In this document: piece after piece, positions 689 through 41,066 of the stretch
Layout: each line of letters starts with the position of its first letter
Numbering within the stretch: the stretch's first letter is position 1
Assembly (NCBI GenBank): GCA_021162205.1
Contig: JAGGZE010000090.1
Location: 1 to 45,207, forward strand
Direction of reading: 5' to 3'
Source: a bacterium
Lineage (GTDB): Bacteria > UBP14 > UBA6098 > B30-G16
DNA: 45,207 nt
Position numbers and translations under genes: made by a program
The notes under the pieces: model-generated
The model's input: only the letters and a program-made list of their open reading frames with translations
Told to the model about the DNA's origin: nothing
Databases searched by the model: none

Positions 689-750
689 CACCCTTAAAGT
701 GTTTTCTTTGCAAAAGTTTCCTCCCAACAAGTCGGGATTCCCTATTGTGC
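689..750 (+). repeat. Degenerate copy of dispersed structured repeat
   Basis: cac-ccttaaa-gtg, TTTTCTTT, then GCAAAAG-TTTCC-TCCCAAC-AA-GTCGGGA-TTCCCT-ATTGTGC; starts directly after the stop codon. Confidence 0.6.
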
Positions 751-833
751 CTCATAATCATAATGGGTTGTGAGAAGTTTATTGATAATAGAATTCACTT
801 GTAGTTGATAATTTTACATTTTCAGTTTAAAAA

Positions 834-2594
834 ATGAAAAAAATTATATTAACAATACTTTTACTAATTATTCTTCTTTCCGCACAGGATAAATACTGGA
901 TTTATTTCTCCGATAAAGGGCTTTACACCGCACAGGATACGGTTGCGGCAATCGAGAAAACCGAAAATATATTGACAGAGCGATGTCTCACTCGAAGGGC
1001 AAAAGTTCTCTCGATAGACAGAATCGTCGATTGGCAGGATATTCCTGTATGTGTGGATTATATCGAACAGGTGAAATTTACCGGTGCGAAAATCGTTCAT
1101 ATAAGCCGATGGTTAAATGCCGTATCGGTTTATGCGAACCCCGATATTCTCTCTAAAATCGCCGATTTTCCATTCATTCAAAAAATAGATATTGTGCAAA
1201 AATTTCATCGAAAATTTATGACCGAGGACACTACCGATTATTCGGGCGAGGCGATTTATGGAATGACAAAGAATCAACTCGCTTTTATGAATATTCCTCC
1301 GTTGCACCAAATGGGTGTTTTCGGCGATGGCGTCCTATTATGTATCACCGACACAGGTTTTAATCTCGACCATATTGCGTTCACACATTGCAATGTCGAA
1401 GCGACTTACGATTTCGTCTCGGGCGATTCCATTGTCGATGTTCAGGAAGGCGATAACGATGGAATTGTTTCTCACGGGACAAAATGCTGGTCTGAAATCG
1501 GCGGACGAGTCGATTCATTATACTGGGGTGCCGCTCCGAATACATCGTTTTTGCTCGCTCGCACCGAGGATATCGATACCGAATGGATTATCGAGGAGGA
1601 CAACTGGGCGGCAGCAGCAGAATGGGCGGATTCGCTCGGTGCAGATATTATGTCGGTCTCGCTGGGATATTACGATTGGTATACTTCCGATGACATGGAT
1701 GGCGATACCCCCGTGATAACCGCTGCTGCGGATAGAGCGGTTTATCTCGGTATCGCTGTTTTCACAGCAGCGGGGAATAGTGGCGGTGGTGGATATCGCA
1801 CACTCGTTACTCCCGGTGATGGCGATAGCGTGATTACAGTCGGTGCTTGCGATGGCAATGGCAATCTTGCGGGATTTTCCTCGCGGGGACCTACCGCCGA
1901 TGGCAGAATTAAACCCGATATTTTGGCTCACGGTGTCGGAACGATTTGCGCGAATGGAATGGATGACTCGACATTTTCGTCAGCATCTGGGACATCTATG
2001 GCGACACCTATGGCTGCTGGAATCGGTGCATTGCTTCTTTCGTTGCGAACATCGCTTACGCCTATGGATTTACTCGATATTCTTCGTAAAACTGCCGACA
2101 ATTTCATTTCACCCGATTCGGCTTATGGATGGGGCATTATCGATGCTCGCGCCGCTGCAGCATATCCATTTCGCGATTCATCGTTCATATATTTCGAGCG
2201 GGGGTGGAATATCATCGCTTTGCCGGTAGATACTGTCCTGCTTGCCGATATTTTGCCGACAATTCCTTATGTATATTCGTTCGATGGCTCGACATTTGTA
2301 TCGGTCGATACATTGCAACCGGGAATAGGATATTTCGCATTTTTCACAGTCGATACATTTGCGATTTTAACTGGCAGACCGATTATCGATTTGAATATTG
2401 TGCTTCACCGCGGATGGAATCTTATCGGGGGGCTTTCGAGAACAACATTCACAACCGAATTGGAAACTTTGCCACTCACGGATAAATTTTTTATCACCGA
2501 AAACGAGGGTTACAATTTATCTTGCGGACTCATCCCCAGTCGTGGCGGATGGTTCTATGCAACATACGACCATACCGCTCATCTTGTAGAGTGA
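834..2594 (+). CDS. Secreted S8 (subtilisin-like) serine peptidase with C-terminal GWN-repeat domain
   Basis: Signal peptide; catalytic motifs ITDTG, SHGT, AAGN, GTSMATP, plus GRIKPD; tail has RGWNIIALP and RGWNLIGG. Confidence 0.9.
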   Translation: MKKIILTILLLIILLSAQDKYWIYFSDKGLYTAQDTVAAIEKTENILTERCLTRRAKVLSIDRIVDWQDIPVCVDYIEQVKFTGAKIVHISRWLNAVSVYANPDILSKIADFPFIQKIDIVQKFHRKFMTEDTTDYSGEAIYGMTKNQLAFMNIPPLHQMGVFGDGVLLCITDTGFNLDHIAFTHCNVEATYDFVSGDSIVDVQEGDNDGIVSHGTKCWSEIGGRVDSLYWGAAPNTSFLLARTEDIDTEWIIEEDNWAAAAEWADSLGADIMSVSLGYYDWYTSDDMDGDTPVITAAADRAVYLGIAVFTAAGNSGGGGYRTLVTPGDGDSVITVGACDGNGNLAGFSSRGPTADGRIKPDILAHGVGTICANGMDDSTFSSASGTSMATPMAAGIGALLLSLRTSLTPMDLLDILRKTADNFISPDSAYGWGIIDARAAAAYPFRDSSFIYFERGWNIIALPVDTVLLADILPTIPYVYSFDGSTFVSVDTLQPGIGYFAFFTVDTFAILTGRPIIDLNIVLHRGWNLIGGLSRTTFTTELETLPLTDKFFITENEGYNLSCGLIPSRGGWFYATYDHTAHLVE

Positions 2595-2747
2595 ACAATC
2601 TCATCTAATATCCTATGGTGGATACTAAGGATATTCCATTAGAAAACCCACAATTTAGTCGAAATGAAAACTAAAAAAAATAACTATTTCTTGCATACTT
2701 TTTAATCTGCGATATATTTTTCGGTTCAAATGAAATGAGGTATTTAA

Positions 2748-4049
2748 ATGAAATTGAAACATTATATCGTATTACTTTTTGTGATGTTTGCTGCGGCATC
2801 CTGCGCAAAAACACCGACAATAACTATTTCACCCGAATCGATAAATCTGGGAACACTTTTGCCAGGTGAATCTGTCGAGGATACATTCTGGGTGAAAAAT
2901 ATCGGTAAAGGTGTGCTTTCAGCATCGGCAAGGTCCGGTTGTGATTGTATCGAACTGGAAAATGAATTGCCCGAATCGATTGCACCGGGGGACAGTTCAA
3001 AGCTTGTTTTCATCTATTATGCACCCGATTCGGCGACTATCGACAATAAGAGTGTTTTTGTTTCATCTAATGATAAAGAAAGCAAAATAAAAAAATTGAT
3101 TGTTAAAGCTACGGTTCGTGCAAGAAAATTAGCCAAGGGCGATTCTACGATTACATTCATTCCATTTGCATCGCAAGGAACGCAATTGACAAATGTTTCG
3201 GATAATATTATGCGAACATTTTTCAGCGATGTTAAGAAAAAACTGCACTTTACACCTGTAAATCCATCGAAAATCATTCAAAATATTATAACCGACCACA
3301 ATTACGGGAAAAAGCCGATAGCGGAAGTCATTCGCAAATGGGCATTGATGGATAGTGTTCGCTGGATTGTCGCTTGTCAGCTTTCGCTCGAAAAGGATTC
3401 GTCTGTTGTCGGCAAATGCTCGGTTGTCGATGGTTTCTCCGAGTTTCCGATGATATTTTCATTTCGAGCTAGAATTTCCCAAGCGGGTAAGGTATTTATC
3501 GACAGCTTGGTAACTTTTTTCGGCGACATAGGTAATCGGTATCGTTCTTCTATGATGAAAGGTATGCAGAGGAAATGGGCGAGTCAACGGAAAAGTGCAA
3601 TGAATAGACCGCTGCCGAAAATGGAATTCGTCGATGTCCGCACAGGAGATACACTCACCGAAAAATCTGCTGAGGGAAAAATATTACTGATGCACTTTTT
3701 TGGAATAAACTGTGAACACTGCGAAGAAGAAAGTCGATGGCTAACCGAATTGGAAAAAACTCATCCCGATAATTTGGTCATCTGGGGAGTTTCTATCGAT
3801 ATGGGAATGCCCGACAGCGTGGAAATATTCGCCCGACAGCATAAATTGCCATATCCAGTCGTTCTTCCAACCGTGGAATCTCATCGTCGATTGACGAGAA
3901 TTTATGGTGGAGCGACTCCGCAAACGATAGTCGCAGACAAGGATGGTGTTGTCAGGGAATTTTTCGTGGGATTCAATAAAGTGTTTGTCCAGCGGCTCGA
4001 ATCGCTCCTGAATTCGCTTACTAACAAACCGACCGAGCAGAAAAAATAG
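2748..4049 (+). CDS. Lipoprotein with N-terminal DUF1573-like Ig domain and C-terminal TlpA/redoxin domain
   Basis: Lipobox AASC; FWVKNIG...SGCDC Ig-type motif; C-terminal thioredoxin fold with CEHC and cis-Pro-type GATPQT. Confidence 0.75.
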   Translation: MKLKHYIVLLFVMFAAASCAKTPTITISPESINLGTLLPGESVEDTFWVKNIGKGVLSASARSGCDCIELENELPESIAPGDSSKLVFIYYAPDSATIDNKSVFVSSNDKESKIKKLIVKATVRARKLAKGDSTITFIPFASQGTQLTNVSDNIMRTFFSDVKKKLHFTPVNPSKIIQNIITDHNYGKKPIAEVIRKWALMDSVRWIVACQLSLEKDSSVVGKCSVVDGFSEFPMIFSFRARISQAGKVFIDSLVTFFGDIGNRYRSSMMKGMQRKWASQRKSAMNRPLPKMEFVDVRTGDTLTEKSAEGKILLMHFFGINCEHCEEESRWLTELEKTHPDNLVIWGVSIDMGMPDSVEIFARQHKLPYPVVLPTVESHRRLTRIYGGATPQTIVADKDGVVREFFVGFNKVFVQRLESLLNSLTNKPTEQKK

Positions 4050-4053
4050 CACT

Positions 4054-5613: not shown

Positions 5614-5626
5614 AAATTATTCTCAC

Positions 5627-5654
5627 TTGACTTTTCCCGATTTTACAGTATAAT
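5627..5654 (+). promoter_or_regulatory. Sigma70-type promoter
   Basis: TTGACT-N16-TATAAT, ending 44 nt before the ATG at 5699. Confidence 0.7.
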
Positions 5655-5698
5655 ATAAATTTGAAAATTAACTTTAATTATCTAATAATAATTGAGAT

Positions 5699-6373: not shown

Positions 6374-6775
6374 TTACGCAACAGGTGCGTTCTCACTCTC
6401 AGCAAACCATTGTTTGCCCTCGTCGCTGAATAAATCGATAAGAATAATAATTCCGAGAACAGTCCCAATCGGGATACTAAAAAGCATTAGAATTGCGAGA
6501 ATAATACCGACAATATTAGCCCAATTTTTCCTATTAGCGATTCCTTTGGCAACCACAAAATATAATATACCGTAAATCACACTGAAAATTATTATTATAA
6601 TCCCAATAATAATGGTTGCTATAGTATGCTCACTTCCACTCGATGAGGATTTTGGAAATATACCGAGTACGAAAACAATAATTCCACCTAAAATTCCAAA
6701 TATGAGATATAACCAGCCAAGCACTTGAAAAATAATCTTACTGGTTTTGATTTTACTCGGTAGTATCTCGTTCAT
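6374..6775 (-). CDS. Small integral membrane protein
   Basis: 3-4 hydrophobic helices with a PIGTVLGI motif; GGAG SD before the ATG at 6775. Confidence 0.7.
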   Translation of the reverse strand: MNEILPSKIKTSKIIFQVLGWLYLIFGILGGIIVFVLGIFPKSSSSGSEHTIATIIIGIIIIIFSVIYGILYFVVAKGIANRKNWANIVGIILAILMLFSIPIGTVLGIIILIDLFSDEGKQWFAESENAPVA

Positions 6776-8174: not shown

Positions 8175-8237
8175 GGAAATCGCCAAACTTACCGATGGCG
8201 AACTTTCTCCAGAATCTATCAAAAGAATCGTCTATAC

Positions 8238-8304
8238 ACACCTTTAAGGTGTTCTCTTTGTGCGACTTCCCTTCCGATAAAATCGGAATCCCTTGTCGCA
8301 CCTG
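8238..8304 (+). repeat. Dispersed structured repeat copy
   Basis: ACACCT-TTA-AGGTGT, TCTCTTT, then GTGCGAC-TTCCC-TTCCGAT-AAA-ATCGGAA-TCCCTT-GTCGCAC. Confidence 0.85.
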
Positions 8305-8336
8305 CATATATAATGGGAATAGAATGCTTTTAGATT

Positions 8337-10712
8337 CTATTTCAACTCGAGATAATAAGGCATAAGATACCAAAAATCCTCGTTCTGAATTTTTCCCAGC
8401 AATTCGGCATCCTGTTTCAATTTCAAAATTTCAGGTGTCAATGTAAATTTTCTTGCGAGTCCAAACAAATCGAATGATTCATAAGGACTGTAATTGCGGA
8501 TTTTATAATCCGAACCGAGTTCGAGATGTTTCGCAAATTTGTTCTGAACCTGCACTATTCCAGCGATACCATCGATGAGACCGATACTAAGCGCTTTTTT
8601 TCCTGTATGAACTTTACCCTGTGCAATTTTCTCCAGCGAATCGGGACTTAAATTATCTCTCCCTTGAATAATTCGATTCTTGAAAAGCGTATATGAACTC
8701 TCCATATTTTTCCGCATAAGTTCCCGCTGTTTCGTGCTGAATGTATCTGTTGGCGAAAATATATTCGCATTCGGCGACATATAAATCTGCTCTTTTCGCA
8801 GACCGAGTTTATCGTAAAGTCCACCGATAGTGAATTTCCCGCCAAGCACTCCAATCGAACCCGTTATAGTGCTTAAATCGGCGAAAATCGAATCGCCTGC
8901 GGATGCGATATAATATCCACCGCTTGCGGCATAAGAACCCATCGAAACCCAGACAGGTTTTTTCTTCGATGCTTTATCTGCCGAATGCCAAATCAAGTCC
9001 GATGCATAAGCCGAACCCCCGGGAGAATCGATTCGTAAAATTATCCCTTTAACTTTCGGATTTTTTGCAGCCTTTTCGATGAGTTTAACGATAGTTTTAT
9101 CACCAGCAGTTCTACCCGCGATAAATCCACCAGGATTCGAAGCTCCACCGACTATCGAACCCTCGATTGGAATAATCGCAATCATCGGTGGACTGTCCCA
9201 GCGATATGAAATTTCTTTATGCTCGAAAAGATAAGTGTTTATCGATTTCGACTTATCCCATCCCGAGAATTTCTCGAACTCATCCCAATATGCCACAGTA
9301 TCGATGATGTTAGCTTCTCGAGCGGAACTTGCCTGCAATGGACATTTTTCAATCCAGCCACGAACCGTATCTGCGGTAATATTTTTCCCGTTCGCAATTT
9401 CATTCACGATAATTGTATCGATATTTTGCAGCATCGTTGTGATTTCCTCGCGCATCTGCGGACTCATCGAATCGGCGACATAAGGTTCTGCGGCAGTTTT
9501 ATATTCGCCGATGTGTATCATATCAGCTTTCACACCGACTTTTTCAAAAAGTTTTTTATAATATGTGATGTCGGCACCGATACCGAAAAAATTCACTCCG
9601 CCAGCGGGCGGAAGACAGATTTCATCAGCAACCGATGTCAGATACATAGTGCCATTGCCGAGATATTCCGCAAATATTTTTATCTTGCCGCCACGGTTCT
9701 TAAATCGCTGCAAGATATTTCGCAATTCCTCATACTGCGCAAATGTGAACGATGGATTTTTCAGACGGATTATTAACTCGTCGACCTTGGTGTCATCGAC
9801 TATTTTTGAAATTTTACCAGCGAGCCGCGCGAAACTTTTCCCGCCGAAAAGAGATGGCGACTCGGAATATGAACCCGCAAGCGTAAATTTCAACGATTTA
9901 GCTCGATATGGAATAATCGACTTGAATCTTTTCTCTGAAATAATCACACCTGCGTTAGAAATATTGTTATTATCGTTATTGCTGTTACAACCGAACAGCG
10001 AGAAATGTCCAATATCGAAACGCAATCCAGCGGAAACCTGCTCGTTCTCGATATCATAAGAACCGCGCAGATGAATTCCCTTATATGGCATAATTTCTCC
10101 GCCGACAATTGCACTTTTATATTCGAAATCGCGATTAAAAATGGCATCGCCATAGATTGTTAAAAATTCGGCATTAGGTCGCAAAGCCAATCCCGTGCGG
10201 ATTTCCTGTCCGAGCGGTCTATTCATAACATCGATATTGAAATTGCCCGGCGAATAGCTCGAATCGATATTGCAATCCTCGCTGTAAGTAGCTCCCCATG
10301 AAAGCCATCTCGCCATCCGCGAAACTAAACCGACTCGCCATGAATGCCTATGCGCACCATCGCTGAAATAGTATTTATCGAGATAGCCGATACCACCGGC
10401 TTTCCCGCCGAGCGATAGTCCCCACCAGAACGAAGTGATACTTTCATCGCCATTACCGATGTCATAACTGGAGATGTCGAATCCGAATGGTGCGAAATTA
10501 TTTGCGAAAATGCCGCCGAATTTTTTAGCATCGAAAGATTTACTGTCATTTGCGATAAAAGCTTCGAACATAGAACCATCGATAGTAGAAAAATATCCAG
10601 GATTTTGCATCCCATCGACTGGATTTTCCGGATACGCCACCGAGAATTGCTGTGCCTGTGCAATCGCAAAAATGAAAAGAATCGAAATAGCAGCGAAAAA
10701 ATAATTACGCAT
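8337..10712 (-). CDS. sppA: Signal peptide peptidase SppA (S49, two-domain type) with extra N-terminal beta-rich domain
   Basis: IGEYKTAAEP, LRIDSPGGS, AASGGYYIA, TITGSIGV; signal peptide starting MRNYFF after a GGGAG SD; about 270 extra N-terminal residues. Confidence 0.9.
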   Translation of the reverse strand: MRNYFFAAISILFIFAIAQAQQFSVAYPENPVDGMQNPGYFSTIDGSMFEAFIANDSKSFDAKKFGGIFANNFAPFGFDISSYDIGNGDESITSFWWGLSLGGKAGGIGYLDKYYFSDGAHRHSWRVGLVSRMARWLSWGATYSEDCNIDSSYSPGNFNIDVMNRPLGQEIRTGLALRPNAEFLTIYGDAIFNRDFEYKSAIVGGEIMPYKGIHLRGSYDIENEQVSAGLRFDIGHFSLFGCNSNNDNNNISNAGVIISEKRFKSIIPYRAKSLKFTLAGSYSESPSLFGGKSFARLAGKISKIVDDTKVDELIIRLKNPSFTFAQYEELRNILQRFKNRGGKIKIFAEYLGNGTMYLTSVADEICLPPAGGVNFFGIGADITYYKKLFEKVGVKADMIHIGEYKTAAEPYVADSMSPQMREEITTMLQNIDTIIVNEIANGKNITADTVRGWIEKCPLQASSAREANIIDTVAYWDEFEKFSGWDKSKSINTYLFEHKEISYRWDSPPMIAIIPIEGSIVGGASNPGGFIAGRTAGDKTIVKLIEKAAKNPKVKGIILRIDSPGGSAYASDLIWHSADKASKKKPVWVSMGSYAASGGYYIASAGDSIFADLSTITGSIGVLGGKFTIGGLYDKLGLRKEQIYMSPNANIFSPTDTFSTKQRELMRKNMESSYTLFKNRIIQGRDNLSPDSLEKIAQGKVHTGKKALSIGLIDGIAGIVQVQNKFAKHLELGSDYKIRNYSPYESFDLFGLARKFTLTPEILKLKQDAELLGKIQNEDFWYLMPYYLELK

Positions 10713-10888: not shown

Positions 10889-11668
10889 ATGAAAAAATTT
10901 CAGAAAATATTATTGTCTATTTTCACGGTTTTGTATGTGTTGATTTACATTCCATTTTTCATTGCAATATTTTTGCCGCTTCCATTAATTTGGGCGACTC
11001 GAATTTTCGGGCAATCGTTTCATCGGAAAATGGTGAGCATAGTCCCGAAAATATGGGGGAAAATAACGATATATCTGACATTAAGCCCTGTGAAAATTAT
11101 CGGTCGCGAAAATATACCAAAATCTGCGGGAAATGTAGTCTATATCGTGAATCATCAAAGTTTTTTCGACATCCCGATTCTGCTCGGATGGGTCGATAAC
11201 AGAATTAGATTCGTTGCCAAAGCAGAGCTTTTCAAAATCCCGATATTAGGGCAATGGATGAAATTAATGAATTGCGTTCCAGTAAGCAGAAAAGTTTCTC
11301 GCGAGGAATTGAAAAAATTCAATAAAATAGCACAATATCTTTCATCGGGTGGGATAATCGTGGTATTCCCCGAAGGCACAAGGTCTGCCGATGGTTCGCT
11401 GCAAAAATTTCACCCATCGTCATTCAGACCTGCTCGAAATGCAAAATCGAAAATCGTGCCTGTGCGTATTATCGGAAGTTTCAAATTATTCCCGCGAAAT
11501 AGAAAATATATAAAACCATCGAGGATAATAGTCGAAATCGGAAAACCCGTCGAATTAGCAGAATATTCCAATATGACTCCCGCACAGCTTTCAGGCAGGT
11601 TTCGCCTGTTTTTTGTGCACCCGTCACCCGTTCGGGTGTTTTCTTTGCGTTGCGTCCCTTGCCGATAA
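10889..11668 (+). CDS. plsC: 1-acyl-sn-glycerol-3-phosphate acyltransferase
   Basis: NHQSFFD (HxxxxD), FVAKAELF, FPEGTRS; the last ~25 codons overlap the repeat element. Confidence 0.9.
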   Translation: MKKFQKILLSIFTVLYVLIYIPFFIAIFLPLPLIWATRIFGQSFHRKMVSIVPKIWGKITIYLTLSPVKIIGRENIPKSAGNVVYIVNHQSFFDIPILLGWVDNRIRFVAKAELFKIPILGQWMKLMNCVPVSRKVSREELKKFNKIAQYLSSGGIIVVFPEGTRSADGSLQKFHPSSFRPARNAKSKIVPVRIIGSFKLFPRNRKYIKPSRIIVEIGKPVELAEYSNMTPAQLSGRFRLFFVHPSPVRVFSLRCVPCR

Positions 11669-11714
11669 AATCGGCAATTCCTTTGCAACGCCTGATTAAT
11701 CAAAATAACATTTC
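11625..11714 (+). repeat. Dispersed structured repeat copy
   Basis: CACCCG-TT-CGGGTG, TTTTCTTT, GCGTTGC-GTCCC-TTGCCGAT-AAA-ATCGGCAA-TTCCTTT-GCAACGC, then tail CTGATTAATCAAAATAA. Confidence 0.85.
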
Positions 11715-11825
11715 AAAATTTCTGGGCAACAATGAATTGTCCCGACTTGTCAGTGGAAGGAAAGTCGCCCTTAAAAAAGAGCCGAATGGCTCTCCAGAAA
11801 TACTAAAGTTTTCTGGAAAGGGTTT

Positions 11826-11858
11826 GGGGAAACTTCTTTTTCAAAAGAAGTTTCCCCA
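11826..11858. repeat. Long palindrome (REP-like or bidirectional terminator)
   Basis: TGGGGAAACTTCTTTT-TC-AAAAGAAGTTTCCCCA (approximate bounds) between convergent genes. Confidence 0.6.
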
Positions 11859-11900
11859 GAAAATCTTTTCTTTCCTCTATCCGATATTATTTTAAGAATA

Positions 11901-11923
11901 GTAGGGGCGTATCGAATACGCTC
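11901..11923 (+). repeat. GTAG-type REP-like palindrome
   Basis: GTAGGGGCGTATCGAATACGCTC, identical to 40440-40462. Confidence 0.75.
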
Positions 11924-11966
11924 TCATTCTATCGAGCGAACTCAATGCCCTGTTGCACCCGATTAG

Positions 11967-13622
11967 TCAAATAAATTTTCGCCACAGTTCGAATGTTAGC
12001 CACCAGTCGAGAATGGATTTTTTGGTATCGTCGCCGGCAAAATATTTCTCGATAGAACTCTCGATGAATCGGTTATCATAGAAACCGACGGTCTTAAAAT
12101 CATTAGATGATAAAATATCGTAAATCCGCTCATGCAATTTGTTCATCGTTTTTCGGAAAAATTCATTAGTAATATGTGTTTCTCTGTTTCGTGTAAATGG
12201 CAGCCACATTTTCATCAGATATGGGTTCAAACCGATTTTAAATGGAAATTTTCTTCCCATACGAGCGAGTTTATATTTTTTCAATTTCGGTGCGAATTTC
12301 TCGATTGCACGCAGATGAACCGCAGAATTCCTACGCGCAGAATGAGATAATTGCAAACCAGCAGTCAACACAGTCGGCTGAACAAATGGCATAAAATTTC
12401 GCGTGAATTCATCGAGACGAGACTGTTCGAATCCCGAATAGTTTGGCAGACGAAACCATATCGCCCACATCTCGGCGATTTCATCGGCTCGCATACCGGA
12501 ACACATATTCAGCGCATTTTCGATATCGGCGAGAAAACCGCAACCGAATGATTTATGGACATCCTCGTTAAATATCGGTGGAAATTCCGAACCGATTAGT
12601 TTCTGCACTATTCTCGGCGTGAGTTTCATATTCGGCACGGGAGCGAGTCTGCGCAGAACACGCTGACGCAAAATCTCGCCGAGTCCACCATCGATTGTGA
12701 TAACATTCCGACCTGCCAAAAAATTCAGCGAATCCAAAAAAAGCGCGGTCGAAATCGGAATCGTAAGCATTTTTCTTGCGGAATGTTCTCGCAAAATATC
12801 CCATAATTCATCGGATGATGGTATCTCGACCTTGTGAAACTCGAACGGGAAAGTAAGCTCATCCGACATCTGTTCGACAATTTCGATATCGGGTTCGCTG
12901 CCGAGCCCAAATGAAAATGTTCGCCACCGTGTCGATGAGCCGAAAAGCAATGCCAAAAGTCCTCGTGAATCGAGCCCGCCCGATAATGATAAATATCTCA
13001 AAGTTTCGGGTTCGGCAGATACGGCAGCGGCAAGTATATCTATTACATCGTCGACAGAATAATTTTGCCCTCGCGGACGATGAAAGTAATCGTTCCCGTG
13101 ATGAACGAAATCGGAATTATTAAATTCGACAGTTGCACCTGGACCGAGTCGATGAATGCCTTTCACAAAAGTATCCCAGTGCAAAATACTCGGTCCGAGC
13201 CACAAGGAACCCAATTTCTCGAAATCGATTTCATTTTTATTAGAATATCGCGCAACCCAATCCATTCTCGATGAAATCACGAAACCATCGCCCAATTTTG
13301 CCCAGAATATTTCGCGCAGACCGAGAATATCGTTGCGAAATTTTATCTCGCCATTTTGCCATTGCACAATTATAAAATGCCCATCGGATGGCACTTCATT
13401 TTTGGCTATCGCATTTCGCCAGTCGGTTTCGTGCAAAATTCGCCAATTGTCGATACCGAGACCGCAAACAGCAAAACCGCTTTCATCATCGAAATCTGCA
13501 ATGCAGGTGCTTGGATTCCCACCGAGAAAAATATCGAAATTTTTATTATGGATACGATGAAGCGGTTTCTCATCGGGTTCGATGCGTTTCCCTAAATTAT
13601 ATGTGATAAATAGCCAGCTCAA
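11967..13622 (-). CDS. Asparagine synthase-related protein (AsnB-like ATP pyrophosphatase)
   Basis: PP-loop LSLSGGLDSR; NDILGLREIFW GATase-like region lacking an N-terminal Cys; DGGLGEILR; TTG start. Confidence 0.8.
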   Translation of the reverse strand: MSWLFITYNLGKRIEPDEKPLHRIHNKNFDIFLGGNPSTCIADFDDESGFAVCGLGIDNWRILHETDWRNAIAKNEVPSDGHFIIVQWQNGEIKFRNDILGLREIFWAKLGDGFVISSRMDWVARYSNKNEIDFEKLGSLWLGPSILHWDTFVKGIHRLGPGATVEFNNSDFVHHGNDYFHRPRGQNYSVDDVIDILAAAVSAEPETLRYLSLSGGLDSRGLLALLFGSSTRWRTFSFGLGSEPDIEIVEQMSDELTFPFEFHKVEIPSSDELWDILREHSARKMLTIPISTALFLDSLNFLAGRNVITIDGGLGEILRQRVLRRLAPVPNMKLTPRIVQKLIGSEFPPIFNEDVHKSFGCGFLADIENALNMCSGMRADEIAEMWAIWFRLPNYSGFEQSRLDEFTRNFMPFVQPTVLTAGLQLSHSARRNSAVHLRAIEKFAPKLKKYKLARMGRKFPFKIGLNPYLMKMWLPFTRNRETHITNEFFRKTMNKLHERIYDILSSNDFKTVGFYDNRFIESSIEKYFAGDDTKKSILDWWLTFELWRKFI

Positions 13623-26518: not shown

Positions 26519-26684
26519 TGATTTGGCATGGCAAACATTTACTCGAAATTCACATCTACGAAGCCGCAAATCGTTCGTAGGAGGTCGCGGTTCGTGTGTA
26601 GGAAGTCAATAACCATCTCGACTAATCGGGACAAGTTACGCATTTGAGCGGTAATCGCACAAACTTGCACCCGAAAATGAGATG

Positions 26685-26759
26685 TTCTTTCACACTCCAA
26701 AATACGCTCTCAGAATAATGAGAATTTTTCTTGCGAAAAGGTGGACGGGAAGGTAGATT
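26685..26759 (+). repeat. Duplicated promoter-bearing module, copy 1 (upstream of hicB)
   Basis: TTCTTTCACACTCCAAAA..CGCTCTCAGA..AATTTTTCTTGCGAAA shared with 28170-28244; contains TTGCGA-N17-TAGATT. Confidence 0.8.
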
Positions 26760-26791
26760 GAGAGGAAGGAAAATTACAATACGGAGGTAAA

Positions 26792-27010
26792 ATGCAAAAC
26801 CAAACTTATAATAACGAAATTATCTTTCTTGTCGAGGAAGATATCGAAGGTGGCTATAATGCGAAAGCGATGGGCTTCCCTATTTTTACTCAGGCAGAAA
26901 CAATCGATGAACTCAAGGAAATGATAGACGATGCCGTTCGATGCCATTTCAAAACATTACCACAAATGATTCGGCTTCACTTTGTCAGAGATGAGGTTAT
27001 GGCAGTATGA
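26792..27010 (+). CDS. hicB: HicB-family antitoxin (short)
   Basis: EEDIEGGYNA, IFTQAETIDEL, DAVRCHF; GGAGG SD; ATGA overlap with hicA. Confidence 0.85.
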   Translation: MQNQTYNNEIIFLVEEDIEGGYNAKAMGFPIFTQAETIDELKEMIDDAVRCHFKTLPQMIRLHFVRDEVMAV

Positions 27011-27252
27011 AAATTCCCAGAGACTTATCGAGCAGAGAATTAATTATAGTGCTCGAAAAATTCGGTTACTCTGTGATTCATCAAACAGGCAGTCATATCA
27101 AGATTAGAACCGAGCAAGAAGGTGTTCACTCCATTACAATTCCAGCCGAACGAGAATTGAAAGTTGGAACATTGAACTCGATAATTCTCGAAATTGCCCA
27201 TCATTTTCAGATAACAAAATGGGAATTAATCGCTTCGCTTTTCGGAAAATAG
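27007..27252 (+). CDS. hicA: HicA-family mRNA interferase toxin
   Basis: LEKFGY, QTGSHIK (catalytic His), ITIP, LKVGTLNSI. Confidence 0.9.
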   Translation: MKIPRDLSSRELIIVLEKFGYSVIHQTGSHIKIRTEQEGVHSITIPAERELKVGTLNSIILEIAHHFQITKWELIASLFGK

Positions 27253-27483
27253 TTACTAAAGATTAATTATTTCACATCATTTCATCATTCAATCAGTTAT
27301 ATCACTGGTTCAGAAACTGTTTTCTGCGTCTCTTTTCATCGAGGAAATGAATTACCCCCGACTTTATCGAGATATTCGACTCGCTGACCATTGTAAACAA
27401 GGCGGATTTGACAAAAATTCAGTGTGTGGTTTCAACCGTTCGGTTCGTAAATCCAAGTTAATCCGCCATGAAAACATCCGAAT

Positions 27484-27540
27484 AGGCAACAGGGAATCGA
27501 CGAAATCGAGGAAAGTTGCCCTGAAAACACCCGAAGCGTG
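27484..27540 (-). repeat. Dispersed structured repeat copy, inverted
   Basis: Reverse complement reads CACGCTTCGGGTG-TTTTCA-GGGCAAC-TTTCC-TCGATTTCGTCGA-TTCCCT-GTTGCCT. Confidence 0.75.
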
Positions 27541-27582
27541 TCCGCGCCGATTCTGTTTCCCTAAAATTTTCTCAAAAATAAT

Positions 27583-27610
27583 TTGACATCTCATAAATAA
27601 TCCCTATCTT
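27583..27610 (+). promoter_or_regulatory. Promoter of the RelE-type TA operon
   Basis: TTGACA-N16-TATCTT upstream of 27655. Confidence 0.6.
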
Positions 27611-27654
27611 ATTCGATGATATGAAATTCAACTTCATTTCATAAGGATAAAACA

Positions 27655-27852
27655 ATGCAAATCGCAATAGACCAGACAACATTATATACACTCATCAAAA
27701 AAGCCGTGAAAGAAGCCATCGAGGAAGAGGAATACAAACTATTCCTTGCCCACATTCCCGAAGTCTCCGATGAGGAGATGCAAGAAATCGAGCGCATTCA
27801 TGGCAAACCCGGCGAGAAGGATGTCGCACATTCCGTTACGGTGCAAACGTGA
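27655..27852 (+). CDS. Putative antitoxin of a RelE/ParE-type TA pair
   Basis: 65-aa acidic protein (PEVSDEEMQEIE); GTGA overlap with the downstream RelE-like toxin. Confidence 0.75.
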   Translation: MQIAIDQTTLYTLIKKAVKEAIEEEEYKLFLAHIPEVSDEEMQEIERIHGKPGEKDVAHSVTVQT

Positions 27853-28121
27853 ATTGGAGTATCGAATTTTCGCCAAAGGTTCTAAAGTTTGCACAAAAAC
27901 ATGAAATCCTCGATGCCATTATCGACAAGATTACGCAGTTTATAACCGCCCGTGAAGGAAAAGCTTATGTTCCCGATGTGAAGTCTTTGAAGGGAATCTG
28001 GAAAGGATACTATCGCATTCGATACCGAAAGTTGCGGATTATTTTCGAGATATATGACGAGAACAAGACCATCTATATCGAGGCAATCGATAATCGGGCA
28101 AAAGTCTATCGAAAGAAATGA
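27849..28121 (+). CDS. relE: RelE/ParE-family toxin
   Basis: WSIEFS, DVKSLKG, YYRIRYRKLRIIFEI, IDNRAKVYR. Confidence 0.85.
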   Translation: MNWSIEFSPKVLKFAQKHEILDAIIDKITQFITAREGKAYVPDVKSLKGIWKGYYRIRYRKLRIIFEIYDENKTIYIEAIDNRAKVYRKK

Positions 28122-28169: not shown

Positions 28170-28244
28170 TTCTTTCACACTCCAAAACCCGCTCTCAGAT
28201 TAATTGGAATTTTTCTTGCGAAAGAAAAGCGGGTGGTGTAAATT
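28170..28244 (+). repeat. Duplicated promoter-bearing module, copy 2
   Basis: Matches 26685-26759; contains TTGCGA-N17-TAAATT. Confidence 0.8.
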
Positions 28245-35017: not shown

Positions 35018-35095
35018 AAATAATGAAAACTTTGTCTTGACTTTTCTGTTAGAATTCTCAATATATTATTAAAGGGACTTTCTAAATAGGAGAAG

Positions 35096-35806
35096 GTGAT
35101 GGCACATAAGTTCAAATGGTTGTTTGGGTTATGTGTTTTAGAAATTGCGGTTTTAATTTCAGGATGCAGTCAATCGTCTATCTTGACAAGGCATAAGAGC
35201 GGTGGTTCTGGCGCTGGAAAAATATCCGCAGTTTCAAAAAAAGCAAAACCCCCGAATAAAGTTTGCGATTTAAGAGTTCAAGTCAAAATAACCGACCCAA
35301 TCGCTCCATATATGTCGGATTTCGGCACTGTCGATGTATATGGGAACGAAGGATTTCATATATCGAAACAATTCTCTGTCAGATTTGGCACACAACTCGT
35401 AACAATTCAGGAGCTCGAGGCAGGAAGATATTCCGTTCAAGTGAGTTATGGAACAATTGTCGCCACCAAATGCGTTATTCTCGGCTGTGTATGTATCGAT
35501 AATTGGAAAGAGGTTTTCTCGCAAGCCACAGCTAATGAATTGCGAAAGGAAATCACATCCTGCACAGGTTGCTCGAAATATACAAGCACAACGGGTTGGG
35601 CATCGGGGAACTACGGCTGGACAGGTGGAAACACAGGTGGAAAATATTGGAATCCAAAAAGTGGAAATTCAAATTTCGGTGGATGGGGTTCGGAGCAGAA
35701 AACTCCAGAATTAAAAGGTTCTGGCGAATTGAAAATGCCATGCTCGACGATTACGCCCTGCGGAAGAAATGTATCGTTCGAATTTCCGAAGGATGCGAAT
35801 GAATAA
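35096..35806 (+). CDS. Cys-rich lipoprotein with a Gly/Trp/Asn-rich segment
   Basis: Lipobox-like LISGC; several Cys pairs; GWASGNYGWTGGNTGG...GGWGS. Confidence 0.7.
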   Translation: MMAHKFKWLFGLCVLEIAVLISGCSQSSILTRHKSGGSGAGKISAVSKKAKPPNKVCDLRVQVKITDPIAPYMSDFGTVDVYGNEGFHISKQFSVRFGTQLVTIQELEAGRYSVQVSYGTIVATKCVILGCVCIDNWKEVFSQATANELRKEITSCTGCSKYTSTTGWASGNYGWTGGNTGGKYWNPKSGNSNFGGWGSEQKTPELKGSGELKMPCSTITPCGRNVSFEFPKDANE

Positions 35807-35871
35807 CGGGCTTTGCCCGTTTTTATTGTGCGAATTTCCTTGCCGATGAAATCGACGATTCCCTTTCGCAC
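35805..35871 (+). repeat. Dispersed structured repeat copy overlapping the stop codon
   Basis: AACGGGC-TTT-GCCCGTT, TTTATT, then GTGCGAA-TTTCC-TTGCCGAT-GAA-ATCGACGA-TTCCCT-TTCGCAC. Confidence 0.8.
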
Positions 35872-36000
35872 AGCGGAATTATAAAGGAAATGATACCGTG
35901 TTTAGTTTAATTGATAATTTTTCATTTAATAATGGACAAGGCAGATATTGCCTCTACTATCGACTGATTTGAACTTTGAATTTTATATAGGAGGATTGAA

Positions 36001-37428
36001 ATGAAAAAGATATTTCTTTCGCTTTTGATTGCGAGCTGTCTTGTATTTTCACAGGGCAATGCAATTTTTAAAGTTACCGATTTCCCCGATAACGAACTTT
36101 GTCCACGTGTGTCGCCCGATGGTCAAAGATTGGCTTATGTGGACTTAAAATTTAATGGTCCATTTCCAATTGCTAATATTAGAGTTTCAACTGCCGATGG
36201 GCAAAATTCTATGCTTGCCACAACTGGGCAAAGTCCTCAAACGGGGGGGGTTCCAATAGATAATCAATACCCGAGTTGGTTTCCCAATGGCTCTCAGGTC
36301 ATTTATGAAAGACTCGTCCCAATAGCTGCGGGAACGGAAACCTATGAAATTTGGTCGGTGCCGTTCAATTCATCCAATGGGACGAGACTCATTCAGAATA
36401 ATTACAATTTTTCGATTATGCCCGATGTATCCGTAAATGGCGATGTCGCATTTGTTACATCGGGGAATCTTCAGTCTCCATTTCCTGGCTATCCGATGAC
36501 ACGATATGGCAATGTGCCTCCACCAGCCGCAGTTATGAAAAACTTTATGATTGCGATTCAACCTGCTGGACAGGCTGTTGTGCTAAATTCTATTCCTGGA
36601 TTGTATCCTCACTGGAATCCCGATGGTAAATTAATCGCATACAGTTCATGGAATCCAACTACTGGATGGGATATTTTTGTAGCAGATTATACGATGGAGA
36701 GAGGTCTTACGAATTTCAGACAGATTACATCCGACCCGGGCGATGAATTTGTTCCGTCCTGGTCTCCCGATGGCAAATGGATTGCTTATGCTTATGCACG
36801 ACCGCAATCATCATCTCCTGTGAATATTTTTGTCATCAATATATTCGATGGCACGAGAATTCAGGAGACATTAGAGCCTAACTCGATTATCACTATGCCC
36901 GATTGGACTAAAACCGCCGATGGCAAGGAATATATATATTGCTGCTCGAATATGGATGGCGATTTCGATATATATCGTCTTGTGCCTCTTCTCGGCAATA
37001 CATCACCCGTATCGAGTTCATCGCAGATGCCACCCGCTCCTGGTGGAATGATTATTACACCTCAACAACAGCAACAAAAGAATGCAGGCAAAGTGCGAGT
37101 TATTGTCCTTAACACATCTACAGATAAAACTGCCGATATTTCTCAGAGTTTTGCCAGTAAAGTCGCACAGAAAATAACCGAATGGAACGATAGTATATTT
37201 GTTTCGAGTGTGATAAACGGCTCCGATTCGGGTGAACCTCATGTATATTATTTCAGCGAAGATTTCAAAAAGCTTGCGGATAATATTTCACTATTTCTCG
37301 ATGGTTTAATCAATAATGAAATTTTATATTCTGAAACCGAATACAGTTTTTTCCCATCGGAACCGTTAAGCAATTCTCCATATAAGCTTAACAATGTCGA
37401 TATACTTATCGAGGCACCCGCTAATTAA
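36001..37428 (+). CDS. Secreted TolB-like PD40 beta-propeller protein with possible LytR_C-like C-terminal domain
   Basis: Repeats PRVSPDGQRLAY, PHWNPDGKLIAY, PSWSPDGKWIAY; Pro/Gln linker; VRVIVLNTS...ASKVAQKI. Confidence 0.82.
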   Translation: MKKIFLSLLIASCLVFSQGNAIFKVTDFPDNELCPRVSPDGQRLAYVDLKFNGPFPIANIRVSTADGQNSMLATTGQSPQTGGVPIDNQYPSWFPNGSQVIYERLVPIAAGTETYEIWSVPFNSSNGTRLIQNNYNFSIMPDVSVNGDVAFVTSGNLQSPFPGYPMTRYGNVPPPAAVMKNFMIAIQPAGQAVVLNSIPGLYPHWNPDGKLIAYSSWNPTTGWDIFVADYTMERGLTNFRQITSDPGDEFVPSWSPDGKWIAYAYARPQSSSPVNIFVINIFDGTRIQETLEPNSIITMPDWTKTADGKEYIYCCSNMDGDFDIYRLVPLLGNTSPVSSSSQMPPAPGGMIITPQQQQQKNAGKVRVIVLNTSTDKTADISQSFASKVAQKITEWNDSIFVSSVINGSDSGEPHVYYFSEDFKKLADNISLFLDGLINNEILYSETEYSFFPSEPLSNSPYKLNNVDILIEAPAN

Positions 37429-37469
37429 TTTAATTATGCACATTTGAACATAATCGAGGATTTACTCTG

Positions 37470-39895: not shown

Positions 39896-39931
39896 TTTAG
39901 CTTAAATATTTATAATTAGAAAAGATTATTT

Positions 39932-40135
39932 ATGAAAGCATTAAATCTCGTTTTTGGGATAGTCTTAACCTTAATATCGCTGAATTATTGGATAACAGTC
40001 GGTGCTTCATCAAAAATATCGAATGTTCCAATTTTTTATGAATTCACATTTAAGCTATTTCCATATATGGATGTTATTATTACTATCATTGCAATATGGC
40101 TCGTAATAAAAGGTGTCAAAGATATTATTAAATAG
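39932..40135 (+). CDS. Small two-TM membrane protein
   Basis: 67 aa with two hydrophobic helices. Confidence 0.55.
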   Translation: MKALNLVFGIVLTLISLNYWITVGASSKISNVPIFYEFTFKLFPYMDVIITIIAIWLVIKGVKDIIK

Positions 40136-40210
40136 CGATAATACCGAATAAATCCGCTGTCTCTCTGCAATCGATAAAAAATCGATTATCGAATTTATAA
40201 AAAAAATGAT

Positions 40211-40238
40211 TTGACACTCGAAATCATTCCAATAAATT
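40211..40238 (+). promoter_or_regulatory. tRNA promoter
   Basis: TTGACA-N16-TAAATT, ending 15 nt before the tRNA. Confidence 0.65.
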
Positions 40239-40253
40239 GTTATGAAATTGAAT

Positions 40254-40328
40254 GGTGGGTGTAGCTCAATTGGTTAGAGTGCTGGACTGTGGATCCGGAG
40301 GTTGGCGGTTCGACCCCGCTCACCCACC
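40254..40328 (+). tRNA. tRNA-His (GTG)
   Basis: G-1, acceptor GTGGGTG/CACCCAC, D arm GCTC/GAGT, anticodon arm CTGGA-CTGTGGA-TCCGG, T loop TTCGACC, discriminator C; CCA not fully encoded (CCT follows). Confidence 0.96.
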
Positions 40329-40333
40329 CCTTC

Positions 40334-40419
40334 CAGGCATTCGCCTGTTTTTATCGTGCAACTTTCCTTTCACCAGAGTGAAATTCCCTGTTGCACCCGA
40401 TTAACCAAAATAATATTTC
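40334..40419 (+). repeat. Dispersed structured repeat copy directly after the tRNA
   Basis: CAGGC-ATTC-GCCTG, TTTTTATC, GTGCAAC-TTTCC-TTTCAC-CAGA-GTGAAA-TTCCCT-GTTGCAC, then tail CCGATTAACCAAAATAATATTTC. Confidence 0.85.
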
Positions 40420-40439
40420 AACCAATTGAAAAGCACCGT

Positions 40440-40465
40440 GTAGGGGCGTATCGAATACGCTCCTA
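40440..40465 (+). repeat. GTAG-type REP-like palindrome
   Basis: GTAGGGGCGTATCGAATACGCTCCTA. Confidence 0.75.
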
Positions 40466-40560
40466 AGAAGAACCGAAGGTTCACCCGCAAATCGCACCCG
40501 TTCGGGTGTTTTTATCGCATTCCGCATGATATGCCTCCTGTTTGTTTATTGCGGTGTCGT

Positions 40561-40590
40561 TGTAAGGGTTCAAAATTTTGAACCCCTACA
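40561..40590. repeat. REP-like palindrome
   Basis: TGTAAGGGTTCAAAATTTTGAACCCCTACA; near-perfect inverted repeat with a GTAG end on the minus strand. Confidence 0.75.
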
Positions 40591-40659
40591 ATCAATTGTT
40601 TTTCTCTATCTTTCATAATTCCAACAAATTACATTTTCTAACCCATTATTTTGCCTTGA

Positions 40660-40848
40660 TTTCTTAGGAAATTGCCTTGCTTTCCCTGTCATTTGTTGAC
40701 ATTTCCTTATATTTTGCGATAATTTCCTTAGAAATTGCCTCGCTTTCCATGGAAATATGTTCCGTCTGCTTGGAAATTGCAATAATTTCCATAGAAATCA
40801 TTTCAGTTTCCATGGAAATTATTCTAATTCCCTTGGAAATCTAAACAA
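40660..40848. repeat. 21-bp periodic tandem array (9 units) with conserved core and variable 8-nt spacers
   Basis: Units start at 40660, 40681, 40702, 40723, 40744, 40765, 40786, 40807 and 40828; consensus TTTCCWTRGAAAT-N8. Confidence 0.85.
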
Positions 40849-40908
40849 AATAGTGACCCTTTCCTGTGAACAAGGGATAGATACCCCTTGTTCAGATATG
40901 GTTCGGCG

Positions 40909-41066
40909 ACAGGCGTTCGCCTGTTTTCTTCGCATTGCTTTTCTTCCGACAAAGTCGAAATTCATTGCAACGCCTGATTAATCAAAATAATATTTCACCA
41001 CCTTTCAGGTGTTTTCTTTGTGCAACTTTTCTGACAACCGAGTTGTCGCACCTGATTGATCAAAAT
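40909..41066 (+). repeat. Two tandem copies of the dispersed structured repeat
   Basis: 40909-40996: ACAGGC-GTTC-GCCTGT..GCATTGC-TTTTC-TTCCGAC-AAA-GTCGAAA-TTCATT-GCAACGC-CTGATTAATCAAAATAA. 40999-41066: CACCT-TTC-AGGTG..GTGCAAC..GACAAC-CGA-GTTGTC-GCAC-CTGATTGATCAAAAT, with a partial deletion. Confidence 0.82.

Follow-up and report, generated by a model that had tools for sequence, protein, structure and literature searches.

Short extragenic palindromes, present by the hundreds, are a familiar component of enterobacterial genomes, where the repetitive extragenic palindromes (REP) and the bacterial interspersed mosaic elements (BIME) are imperfect palindromes of few subfamilies that lie in alternating mosaic clusters with fixed linkers. 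They prefer the 3' ends of genes, and roles in termination and in the formation of mRNA ends have been proposed for them. Hairpins also mark the ends of the insertion sequences (IS) of the IS200/IS605 group, whose orientation bias is near-absolute: IS200 carries a left-end terminator hairpin that blocks incoming transcription, and in IS608-type elements the left- and right-end hairpins are near-identical. In Neisseria, the Correia elements (100-150 bp) possess terminal inverted repeats and target duplications, and the DNA uptake signals measure 10-12 bp. This report concerns a dispersed repeat with two hairpins that was noticed in a stretch of 45,207 nucleotides (the window: GenBank assembly GCA_021162205.1, contig JAGGZE010000090.1, positions 1 to 45,207 of the forward strand), and that is best filed as a lineage-specific new relative of the REP/BIME elements, with about 500 copies in one uncultured bacterium.

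In our judgement the family is probably a non-autonomous mosaic DNA repeat of the REP/BIME type that is recognised as folded single-stranded DNA and has been co-opted as a terminator. The preliminary description of the window had left the choice between an RNA motif and a single-stranded DNA hairpin element; neither is proven, and the DNA element is favoured because of its high copy number, its variable presence, its mosaic arrays and tail-to-tail pairs, the ability of both strands to fold, and the lack of any excess of G:T over A:C mismatches in its stems.

The genome to which the window belongs (G000) is a draft of 2,565,228 bases in 185 contigs with 40.8% G+C, for which crude calls gave 1867 open reading frames (ORFs) and 89% coding sequence. 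A sequence-only profile (nhmmer) found 504 matches in it at E ≤ 1e-3. A seed of 45 copies, 40 from other contigs of the genome and five from the window, served as the basis of a covariance model, R1, which matches all 150 candidates scored at E ≤ 1.9e-9. The repeat is a genome-wide family with roughly one copy per 5 kb rather than a local feature of the window, and it explains the fragmentation of the assembly into many contigs. In the Rfam comparison tRNA alone reached the gathering score; positions 40200-41250 gave chance-level matches at E ≤ 10, and the best match other than tRNA, Gut-1, scored 23 bits against a gathering score of 50. None of the three outcomes that would have spoken against the earlier description came about: covariation was found, Rfam holds no matching family, and some 500 further copies lie outside the window.

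The full unit is about 111 nt long, a complete one of 111 nt being seen in a clean tandem array, and consists, in this order, of hairpin 1 with a T-run, hairpin 2, a linker, and an A-run with an inverted hairpin 1. Conservation sets in at hairpin 1 and fades some 25 nt past hairpin 2. The layout read earlier from the window copies (short GC hairpin, T-rich linker, 7-bp outer stem, TTYCCT, inner hairpin, ATTCCYT, closing stem, and often CYGATTAAYCAAAATAA next) was found again. Hairpin 1 has a 5-bp GC stem and a TTCG-like tetraloop, followed by the T-run; the recurrent stem types among 321 copies are CACCC (123), CAGGC (80), GAGCC (31), CACCT (29) and GAACC (8). Hairpin 2 has a 7-bp outer stem, a conserved pyrimidine internal loop of 5x6 nt, and a variable inner hairpin. 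The outer arms belong to the classes GTGCAAC/GTTGCAC (157), GCGTTGC/GCAACGC (70) and GCATTGC/GCAATGC (28), with GGCGAC-type arms in 44 parsed copies. The two strands of the loop are tightly coupled (TTTCCT with ATTCCCT 52 times, TTTTCT with ATTCATT 54 times, TTCCCT with ATTCCTT 32 times). The part inside the loop varies from 24 to 74 nt with pairing maintained, and holds two hairpins in some copies. The linker, of about 35 nt, opens with a 10-bp palindrome that occurs in the compensated forms TGATTAATCA and TGCTCGAGCA and as a half-and-half hybrid. A binding site for the integration host factor was considered for the linker, and a by-eye comparison with the consensus WATCAANNNNTTR gave no fit.

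The right flank was tallied for 319 copies of subfamilies A and B. An A-run with an inverted GAGCC- or GAACC-type hairpin follows in 57, its end mostly 44-50 nt past hairpin 2; in 34 an inverted GGCGAC-type hairpin 2 comes next and then the inverted end hairpin, and this inverted hairpin 2 ahead of the end hairpin gives a REPIN-like pair. The next unit follows directly in 41, an inverted arm only is present in 12, and 146 have some other right flank, often with other repeat families inserted in the linker; the remaining 29 lie within 170 nt of a contig end, where the flank is not assignable. Judged by its sequence, hairpin 1 fits the intrinsic-terminator consensus for transcription entering from the left, and the A-run with the inverted hairpin 1 would read as a terminator for transcription entering from the right. 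Judging from the right-end tally and the clean 111-nt tandem unit, the full unit is capped at both ends by terminator-like hairpins that face transcription coming from outside.

The seed copies were chosen for pairing, so that the unbiased figure is that of the nhmmer set. In the seed, 98.7% of outer-stem positions are paired, and both partners have changed in six of the seven pairs; for the inner stem the figures are 89% and five of five, and shuffle and slid controls stay far below. Both arms are present in 404 of the 504 nhmmer matches, and the outer stem pairs at all seven positions in 313 of them with G:T allowed (277 with Watson-Crick pairs only); the mean number of paired positions is 6.66, as against 5.42 in shuffled arms. 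The claim that the stems change while their pairing is kept therefore stands in unselected copies, with the covariation carried by a few discrete subfamilies rather than by continuous drift. The same is true of the claim that the unpaired loop is the most conserved part: the near-invariant columns of the 45-copy alignment lie mostly in the two loop strands, the loop of hairpin 1 and the T-run. Hairpin-1 type, arm type, loop pair and inner hairpin are combined in many ways and are partly linked (Cramer's V 0.5-0.75), and recombination among copies must therefore be frequent, the arms still matching each other. No strand asymmetry is seen in the mismatches of the outer stem (77 GT+TG, 87 AC+CA), and none of the RNA type in hairpin 1 (11 and 27, respectively), in a test of limited power where most mismatches are hybrids of the GCGTTGC and GCATTGC subfamilies. 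Together with the variable inner length, the missing asymmetry fits better with folded DNA, or with the use of either strand, than with one functional RNA strand; the variable inner length with kept pairing argues in addition for a folded form and against a site for a dimer on double-stranded DNA.

The copies are almost exclusively extragenic. Occupied intergenic regions number 53 of 249 between convergent genes, 104 of 1211 between tandem genes and 14 of 222 between divergent genes, in a tally that leaves out 196 matches at contig ends or in ORF-called stretches. Where a region holds two elements, their orientations are '+-' in 22 cases, '++' in 16, '--' in 14 and '-+' in none; single elements in tandem regions are '+' in 33 cases and '-' in 19. 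The tail-to-tail pairs join an A or B copy with a C copy at spacings that cluster near 21 and 34 nt: 15 are A+C pairs, spaced 19-35 nt with one exception of 137 nt, and eight further pairs are B+C. The midpoints of 69 matches fall within a crude ORF, 50 of them in ORFs of under 150 codons; all 11 matches in ORFs of at least 300 codons lie within 200 nt of the ORF end, as do, within about 200 nt, the listed cases in ORFs of 150-300 codons. Among these 69 there was no convincing mid-gene copy or in-frame gene insertion. Orientation relative to local GC skew gave an odds ratio of about 0.5 (0.35-0.75 by window and threshold; p 0.07 with clusters collapsed), a figure taken from a draft assembly in which local skew is confounded with gene strand.

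A hairpin followed by a T-run is found between -12 and +100 of the stop codon in 185 of 1783 genes, and in 135 of these the hairpin is of the family type, so that about three quarters of the recognisable gene-end terminator hairpins are copies of one family. By this count the family would be the source of most of the recognisable transcription stop signals of the genome. Of the 135 family-type hairpins, 50 begin no later than the last base of the stop codon, compared with 7 of the 50 other hairpins. At distance 0 the stop codon is TAA in 26 of 29 cases (995 of 1783 genome-wide), and its AA can lengthen the stem against the first Ts of the run; in some genes the TAA in the loop of the CACCTTTAAGGTG type is itself the stop codon. 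Several tRNA genes have hairpin 1 directly on their 3' side. The preliminary description had already remarked that three window copies begin at a stop codon or tRNA end, and this is so: the copy at 689 follows a TAG, that at 35805 lies 3 nt after a TGA, and that at 40334 lies 3 nt after tRNA-His. Terminator-like hairpin 1 does point to a role at the RNA level for part of the element.

R1 detected the family in four of the 41 genomes searched, G000 included: 23 matches in a second genome of the same genus (G001), two in G003 and four in G008, with no match in eight other genomes of the family nor in 29 more distant ones. Among these 41 genomes it is restricted to one genus and two sister genera, and R1 can be used to mask or annotate the repeats in related metagenome bins. 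Copies from the other genera retain hairpin 1, the T-run, the arms and the letters of the loop; the linker is not kept. The presence or absence of copies at orthologous loci had been put forward for checking, and it differs between species as well as between strains. Three of the eight window sites were compared with G001, and at all three the element is absent there: an unrelated terminator-like hairpin occupies exactly the place of the copy at 689, the orthologous site of the copy at 35805 is empty, and the counterpart of 8238 has no element, with synteny broken. At 35805 the 5' arm of hairpin 1 overlaps sequence shared with G001, which had suggested that hairpin 1 stems from an inverted target duplication; this origin was ruled out, as 271 of 321 hairpin-1 stems fall in the five recurrent types. 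Seen from G001, a G000 element lies no more than 400 nt from the orthologous flank at 13 of 19 element loci; at five there is none, and the remaining locus is ambiguous. Only three of ten aligned pairs consist of the same modules (82.5, 91.1 and 93.5% identity); in the other seven, hairpin-1 type, arms or inner hairpin differ. Positions persist between G001 and G000, and their contents are replaced.

The same picture is seen among strains. The subfamily A pattern is present on 38 metagenome contigs from two data sets, many of them 97-99% identical to G000, and has no match on viral contigs. Its 43 matches comprise eight spanned by one alignment of at least 95% identity to G000, four that break at the array with both flanks matching, 21 with one alignable flank only, and ten without a close match. 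Whole units or modules differ between flanks of 97-99% identity at six loci (L095, L104, L114, L115, L118, L125); on the favoured reading, strains would swap modules at a far higher rate than that of mutation in the flanks. At L104, 92 nt of G000 (T-run, hairpin 2 and linker) is missing from the metagenome contig, where a truncated hairpin 1 abuts a complete one; 40 such junctions exist in G000. As a side observation, a recurrent block containing GGAGAAGGATTTAGGATGAGGGAAATCC often lies directly upstream of these compound hairpin-1 junctions (contig C31, ca. 8400-8560; contig C40, ca. 1000-1055). Public contigs of four DNA runs span the copies at 27484 and 35805; elsewhere in them repeat-induced joints were found and no clean empty site.

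Compared with Correia elements or inverted pairs of uptake sequences, the family likewise consists of dispersed repeats that supply many host gene-end terminator hairpins, and differs from them by a second hairpin with a conserved internal loop. Miniature derivatives of the IS200/IS605 group (palindrome-associated transposable elements) resemble it as short non-coding units built on subterminal hairpins, with a transposase of the matching type in the genome, and hairpin 1 would block incoming transcription as the left end of IS200 does. The two hairpins of our unit, however, differ from each other, unlike those of IS608-type elements, its strand bias is weak, and the genome has no full-length IS with such ends. 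With REP/BIME the family shares its hundreds of extragenic palindromes, its few subfamilies, its preference for 3' ends and its alternating clusters with linkers of fixed length. It departs from them in that each unit contains a canonical terminator hairpin with T-run, in the large conserved 5x6 internal loop and freely variable inner hairpin of its palindrome, and in its host, an uncultured non-proteobacterial lineage with no intact cognate class-2 REP-associated tyrosine transposase (RAYT). According to PMC3733652, REP palindromes as a class have a GTAG (or CGTC) tag at their foot. Such a tag is not found at the stem foot of the present element, whose outer arms start with GTGC, GCGT, GCAT or GGCG, whereas a separate repeat of the same genome, GTAGGGGCG, carries it. 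The REPIN-RAYT systems (PMC3116915, PMC5581495, PMC6006769) compare with it in the inverted hairpin pairs with short fixed spacer and in a Y1 HUH gene that is present once, is inherited vertically, keeps its catalytic residues and is accompanied by a repeat copy.

That gene, encoding P0001, is one of three Y1_Tnp matches in G000, and is the candidate enzyme. P0001 is an intact protein of 136 residues that scores under the curated cut-off of the IS200 model and whose nearest solved relatives are IS200/IS605 transposases. It is present in single copy, with orthologues in 10 of the 11 genomes of the family (44-85% identity) and in all eight genomes examined from a second family of the class. H54, H56, Y114 and Q118 are invariant among them, as is H122, and the consensus reads DHIH and Y---Q--RH with a W motif of WD rather than WQ. 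P0001 thus has the class-1 motif Y---Q where class-2 TnpAREP has Y---NP (PMC6006769); further differences from REPIN-RAYT are that the repeat lies on the 5' side of P0001 only and that P0001 exists in many genomes without detected repeat. That paper gives subclass 1.1 TnpA genes an average of 4.8 copies per genome, unlike the single-copy, class-wide conserved P0001, and characterises TnpA-Y1 subclass 1.2 by DH[IV]H, Y---Q--HH, low copy number and the lack of IS-type ends, with no associated REP listed there. In its motifs and low copy number P0001 would most recall subclass 1.2; WD fits neither class-1 subclass. Directly upstream of P0001, in G000 as in G001, lies an inverted copy with two inner hairpins, 93.5% identical between the two. 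The preliminary description had recommended a search for a RAYT or TnpA gene flanked by copies; it yielded this intact IS200-like HUH gene, and the link of the gene to the element is circumstantial. The second match, P0002 on contig C149, is a truncated RAYT-like gene flanked by GTAGGAG-type repeats and the only RAYT-like gene of the genome. The third is a Y1 domain within a large restriction-modification-like protein. At locus L002 (contig C114 of G000, 719-4033) a frame of more than 1100 codons, a putative fused restriction-modification enzyme, includes a Y1_Tnp (HUH) domain in the same frame, together with short peptide repeats (RRLKSSVQG, NGGLQSTA) in three copies, which resemble in-frame insertions of a DNA repeat.

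As a mechanism we would propose that both the multiplication of the unit and the exchange of its modules take place in DNA; that hairpin 2 may be recognised in its folded, single-stranded form, the cues being the constant geometry of its stem and the conserved letters of its loop; that the recognising enzyme would act in trans, with the single-copy IS200-like Y1 HUH protein P0001 as candidate; that terminator hairpins already present at gene ends would be the targets of insertion or conversion; and that the host would have co-opted hairpin 1 as its main intrinsic terminator, copies at gene ends thereby being kept. More specific, and offered tentatively as a possibility with the odds against it, is the proposal that hairpin 2 is the DNA partner of P0001 in a REPIN-RAYT-like system outside the Proteobacteria, in which units home to gene-end terminator hairpins, swap modules, and have rewritten most intrinsic terminators of the host. 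If the main reading is true, one dispersed hairpin repeat would be at once a selfish DNA element and the standard stop signal of its host. It would then offer a natural case for how mobile repeats turn into regulatory parts, a case for structure-specific recognition of single-stranded DNA by fixed geometry and conserved loop with free stem variation, and a case for the function of the widespread low-copy IS200-like proteins that lack IS features.

Several points weigh against a mobile DNA repeat co-opted as terminator. Neither a target duplication nor an exact boundary of insertion could be made out. The differences between strains are mostly found within arrays, in which homologous recombination, slippage and assembly error look alike; in-array differences could partly be assembly error and were weighted below solo sites. 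Contigs often break at the repeats, which makes counts and array structures approximate. The orientation bias is only moderate, far below that of IS200/IS605, and the terminator role is inferred from a consensus scan rather than from transcript ends. As to the enzyme, the flanks of P0001 in other genera have no element, and orthologues are present in seven genomes of the family and eight further genomes of the class where R1 found none. That gene and copy are neighbours in both G000 and G001 is weak evidence, since the two species share many element positions (13 of the 19 in G001); for the same reason, the special conservation of the copy next to P0001 loses weight as an argument for a link. 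No test ties any enzyme to the element, and P0001 is a circumstantial candidate only. An autonomous master element was sought in G000 and rejected: three matching pairs of element ends, 2.3-3.5 kb apart, enclose housekeeping genes, and no pair encloses a transposase.

A rival explanation is a cis-acting RNA motif, namely a structure of the 3' untranslated region or of read-through transcripts, or an antisense RNA, whose GGA-bearing purine loops would bind a protein, whose structure selection on the RNA would maintain and whose copies would have arisen by duplication of a useful module. Hairpin 1 with its T-run meets the intrinsic-terminator consensus, the family hairpin is found at the stop codon with a much higher frequency than other hairpins, and the 13 shared positions of G001 suggest retention; conserved loop letters, coupled loop strands (the 52 and 54 cases of TTTCCT/ATTCCCT and TTTTCT/ATTCATT) and co-varying stems also count in its favour. 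Hairpin 2, however, lies downstream of the terminator, so that it would be transcribed by read-through only, and full units carry, on its opposite flank, another terminator in inverted orientation that faces it. Neither strand has an excess of the G:U type, single elements in tandem regions are only weakly oriented (33 and 19), three of seven window copies have lost the fold, the content at shared positions is swapped, and Rfam gave no match; we consider an RNA motif improbable. A somewhat better chance, though still a small one, is given to a history without any dedicated enzyme, with an old family reshuffled by ectopic gene conversion, template switching at hairpins and unequal crossing-over, and retained as terminator. 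Patchwork replacement of modules of 7-20 nt across strains and species, changes of tandem copy number with breakpoints in repeated sequence, and short duplications around inserted 14-nt hairpins are all in its favour, as are the missing autonomous element and the occurrence of P0001 in genomes without detected element. Such host processes would hardly seed hundreds of unique sites, with ca. 500 copies in G000 against 23 matches in its congener G001, and they leave the constant geometry and conserved unpaired letters of hairpin 2 without a role.

The folded geometry of hairpin 2, with its variable stem sequences, is shared with the attC sites of integrons, which PMC5027507 describes as built from a 7-bp R box, an L-box stem and a variable terminal loop, with a central spacer of 5-6 unpaired bases in either arm, and as recognised by structure. 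Hairpin 2 might accordingly be recombined as folded single-stranded DNA by a Xer-like tyrosine recombinase, with units exchanged in the manner of integron cassettes; strains do swap whole units, and GTGCAAC and GTTGCAC, the arms of subfamily A, agree with RYYYAAC and GTTRRRY, respectively, at six of seven positions each. The defining tests for attC sites nevertheless fail for integrase, extrahelical L-box bases, free spacer and one-orientation arrays. G000 has no integron integrase (the best TIGR02249 match reaches 77.6 bits with a cut-off of 265), and its only two Phage_integrase genes, Xer-like tyrosine recombinases, are of a kind that all 14 control genomes match too. The inner stems are without extrahelical bases; the spacer is here the most conserved part, against an unconserved sequence in attC as far as PMC5027507 reports it. 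Subfamily B is reversed, its 5' arm containing GTT and its 3' arm AAC, and the copies are dispersed on both strands among housekeeping genes instead of standing in a one-orientation array beside an integrase. An attC-like site is in our opinion very unlikely. Least credible of all, with hardly any probability left to it, is an artefact of assembly or binning of the short-read metagenome. It could appeal to the draft state of the genome (185 contigs, with 29 of 319 A/B copies within 170 nt of a contig end) and to a contig-level depth about 10x that of the flanks over the cluster at 40.3-41.2 kb. Solo copies are nevertheless embedded in long unique contigs, positions 25208-28025 and 35184-36870 are covered by independent public contigs that show 0 and 2 differences, respectively, eight metagenome matches of the A pattern are spanned by single alignments of at least 95% identity to G000, and the family recurs in the separately assembled G001, G003 and G008. 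For the elements themselves the artefact is close to refuted.

In the window, R1 with filters off gave ten matches at E ≤ 3e-4, starting at 685, 8234, 11621, 11702 (minus strand), 27468 (minus), 35803, 40330, 40906, 40996 and 41049 (minus). Five of them (8234, 11621, 35803, 40330, 40906) are seed members and matched by construction, and the other five are independent. All eight copies and the two fragments of the preliminary description proved real on reading the sequence at their positions; its list had overlooked the minus-strand copies at 11702-11796 and 41049-41161, each the convergent partner of a plus-strand copy. When single strands were folded, four of seven window copies (11621, 40330, 35802, 8234) reached the expected fold, at z of -3.5 to -7.2 and with a 5x6 or 5x7 internal loop, those at 11621 and 40330 equally stable on both strands. 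The fold is lost in the copies at 684, 27462 (minus) and 40906 (z -0.1, -0.7 and -1.3), which look decayed. The consensus scan called hairpin 1 with its T-run terminator-like at 35805, 40334, 40494, 40905 and 40999.

The copy at 685..772 (plus strand), which adjoins the TAG stop of the ORF at 56..688, has an imperfect hairpin 1 and imperfect outer stems; R1 scores it at 40 bits (E 5e-7, outside the seed). The well-formed copy at 8234..8323 (plus; 67 bits) has the outer stem GTGCGAC/GTCGCAC, hairpin 1 ACACCTTTAAGGTGT and a 5x6 loop, and folds as expected at z -7.2. At 11621..11713 (plus) a well-formed subfamily B copy (GCGTTGC/GCAACGC, linker CTGATTAATCAAAATAA, 92 bits, z -4.3 and -3.6 on the two strands) is the left half of a tail-to-tail pair. 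Its convergent partner at 11702..11796 (minus) is of subfamily C, with a GGGCGAC-type arm and hairpin 1 GAGCCATTCGGCTC; R1 gives it 57.9 bits (E 3e-11, outside the seed) and nhmmer matches it at 11713-11792 of the minus strand. A 3' fragment at 11944..11979 (plus; repeat family D5) consists of a loop strand, the GTTGCAC arm and linker. The short copy at 27468..27545 (minus), decayed, with outer stem GGCAAC/GTTGCC, scores 29 bits (E 2e-4, outside the seed), and a public contig of run X1 spans it unchanged. A contig of the same run spans the copy at 35803..35893 (plus; 67.5 bits), which is placed 3 nt past the TGA of the ORF at 35096..35806 and has hairpin 1 ACGGGCTTTGCCCGT and outer stem GTGCGAA/TTCGCAC.

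The remaining copies are clustered behind the tRNA-His gene (40255..40330, plus). It adjoins a well-formed subfamily A copy at 40330..40418 (plus; GTGCAAC/GTTGCAC, 88.8 bits, z -5.3 and -5.1, 5x6 loop), whose right-end inverted hairpin GAACCGAAGGTTC lies at about 40470-40482, beyond an inserted GTAG-type repeat. The 5' fragment at 40491..40556 (plus; 21 bits, E 0.014) shows hairpin 1, T-run and the start of a GCATT arm before it passes into unrelated sequence, and its terminator-like site is at 40494-40509. In the copy at 40906..40995 (plus; 86 bits) the 5' arm GCATTGC faces the 3' arm GCAACGC with one A:C mismatch, and the minimum fold differs from the expected one. It abuts a truncated copy at 40996..41073 (plus; 41.5 bits, outside the seed) without the 3' loop strand, the left half of a second tail-to-tail pair; the subfamily C copy at 41049..41161 (minus; 28 bits, E 3e-4, outside the seed) has two inner hairpins and hairpin 1 GGAACCTTCGGTTCC.

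G000 contains no fewer than four or five repeat families that are interleaved with one another. A second family of classical REP form, GTAGGGGCGTATCGAATACGCYC, with GTAG tag and palindrome, occurs in the window at 11903-11927 and 40441-40465 and at locus L003 (ca. 1340-1390 and 1840-1900); it frequently interrupts the main element within its linker, and related GTAGGAG copies are those that flank P0002. A hairpin block opening with GGGGGACAG and closing with CTGTCCCCC also recurs in linkers. The third family is composed of long perfect hairpins (TCCAGAAATACTAAAGTTTTCTGGA, GGGGAAACTTCTTTTTCAAAAGAAGTTTCCCC) and is found in the window at 11793-11862 and at L108 (670-782, compared with contig C111 of G000), where a long-hairpin block of about 119 nt, bounded by GGGAAA/GGGAAC, is in the metagenome contig and missing from the 98-99% identical G000 locus. 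A near-perfect palindrome of 30 nt, TTGTAAGGGTTCAAAATTTTGAACCCCTACAA, at 40565-40596 of the window reads GTAGGGG on the minus strand and may be a member of the GTAG type. Upstream of the ORF at 41228..42946, positions 40640-40850 hold at least six direct or inverted repeats on TTTCC(A/T)TGGAAAT and GGAAATTGC, including an inverted pair of 26 nt (40772-40797 and 40807-40832); this cluster looks like a putative array of regulator binding sites. Finally, a direct repeat of 54 nt with 91% identity (family D8) stands at 26685-26738 and 28170-28223, 1485 nt apart, around the copy at 27484.

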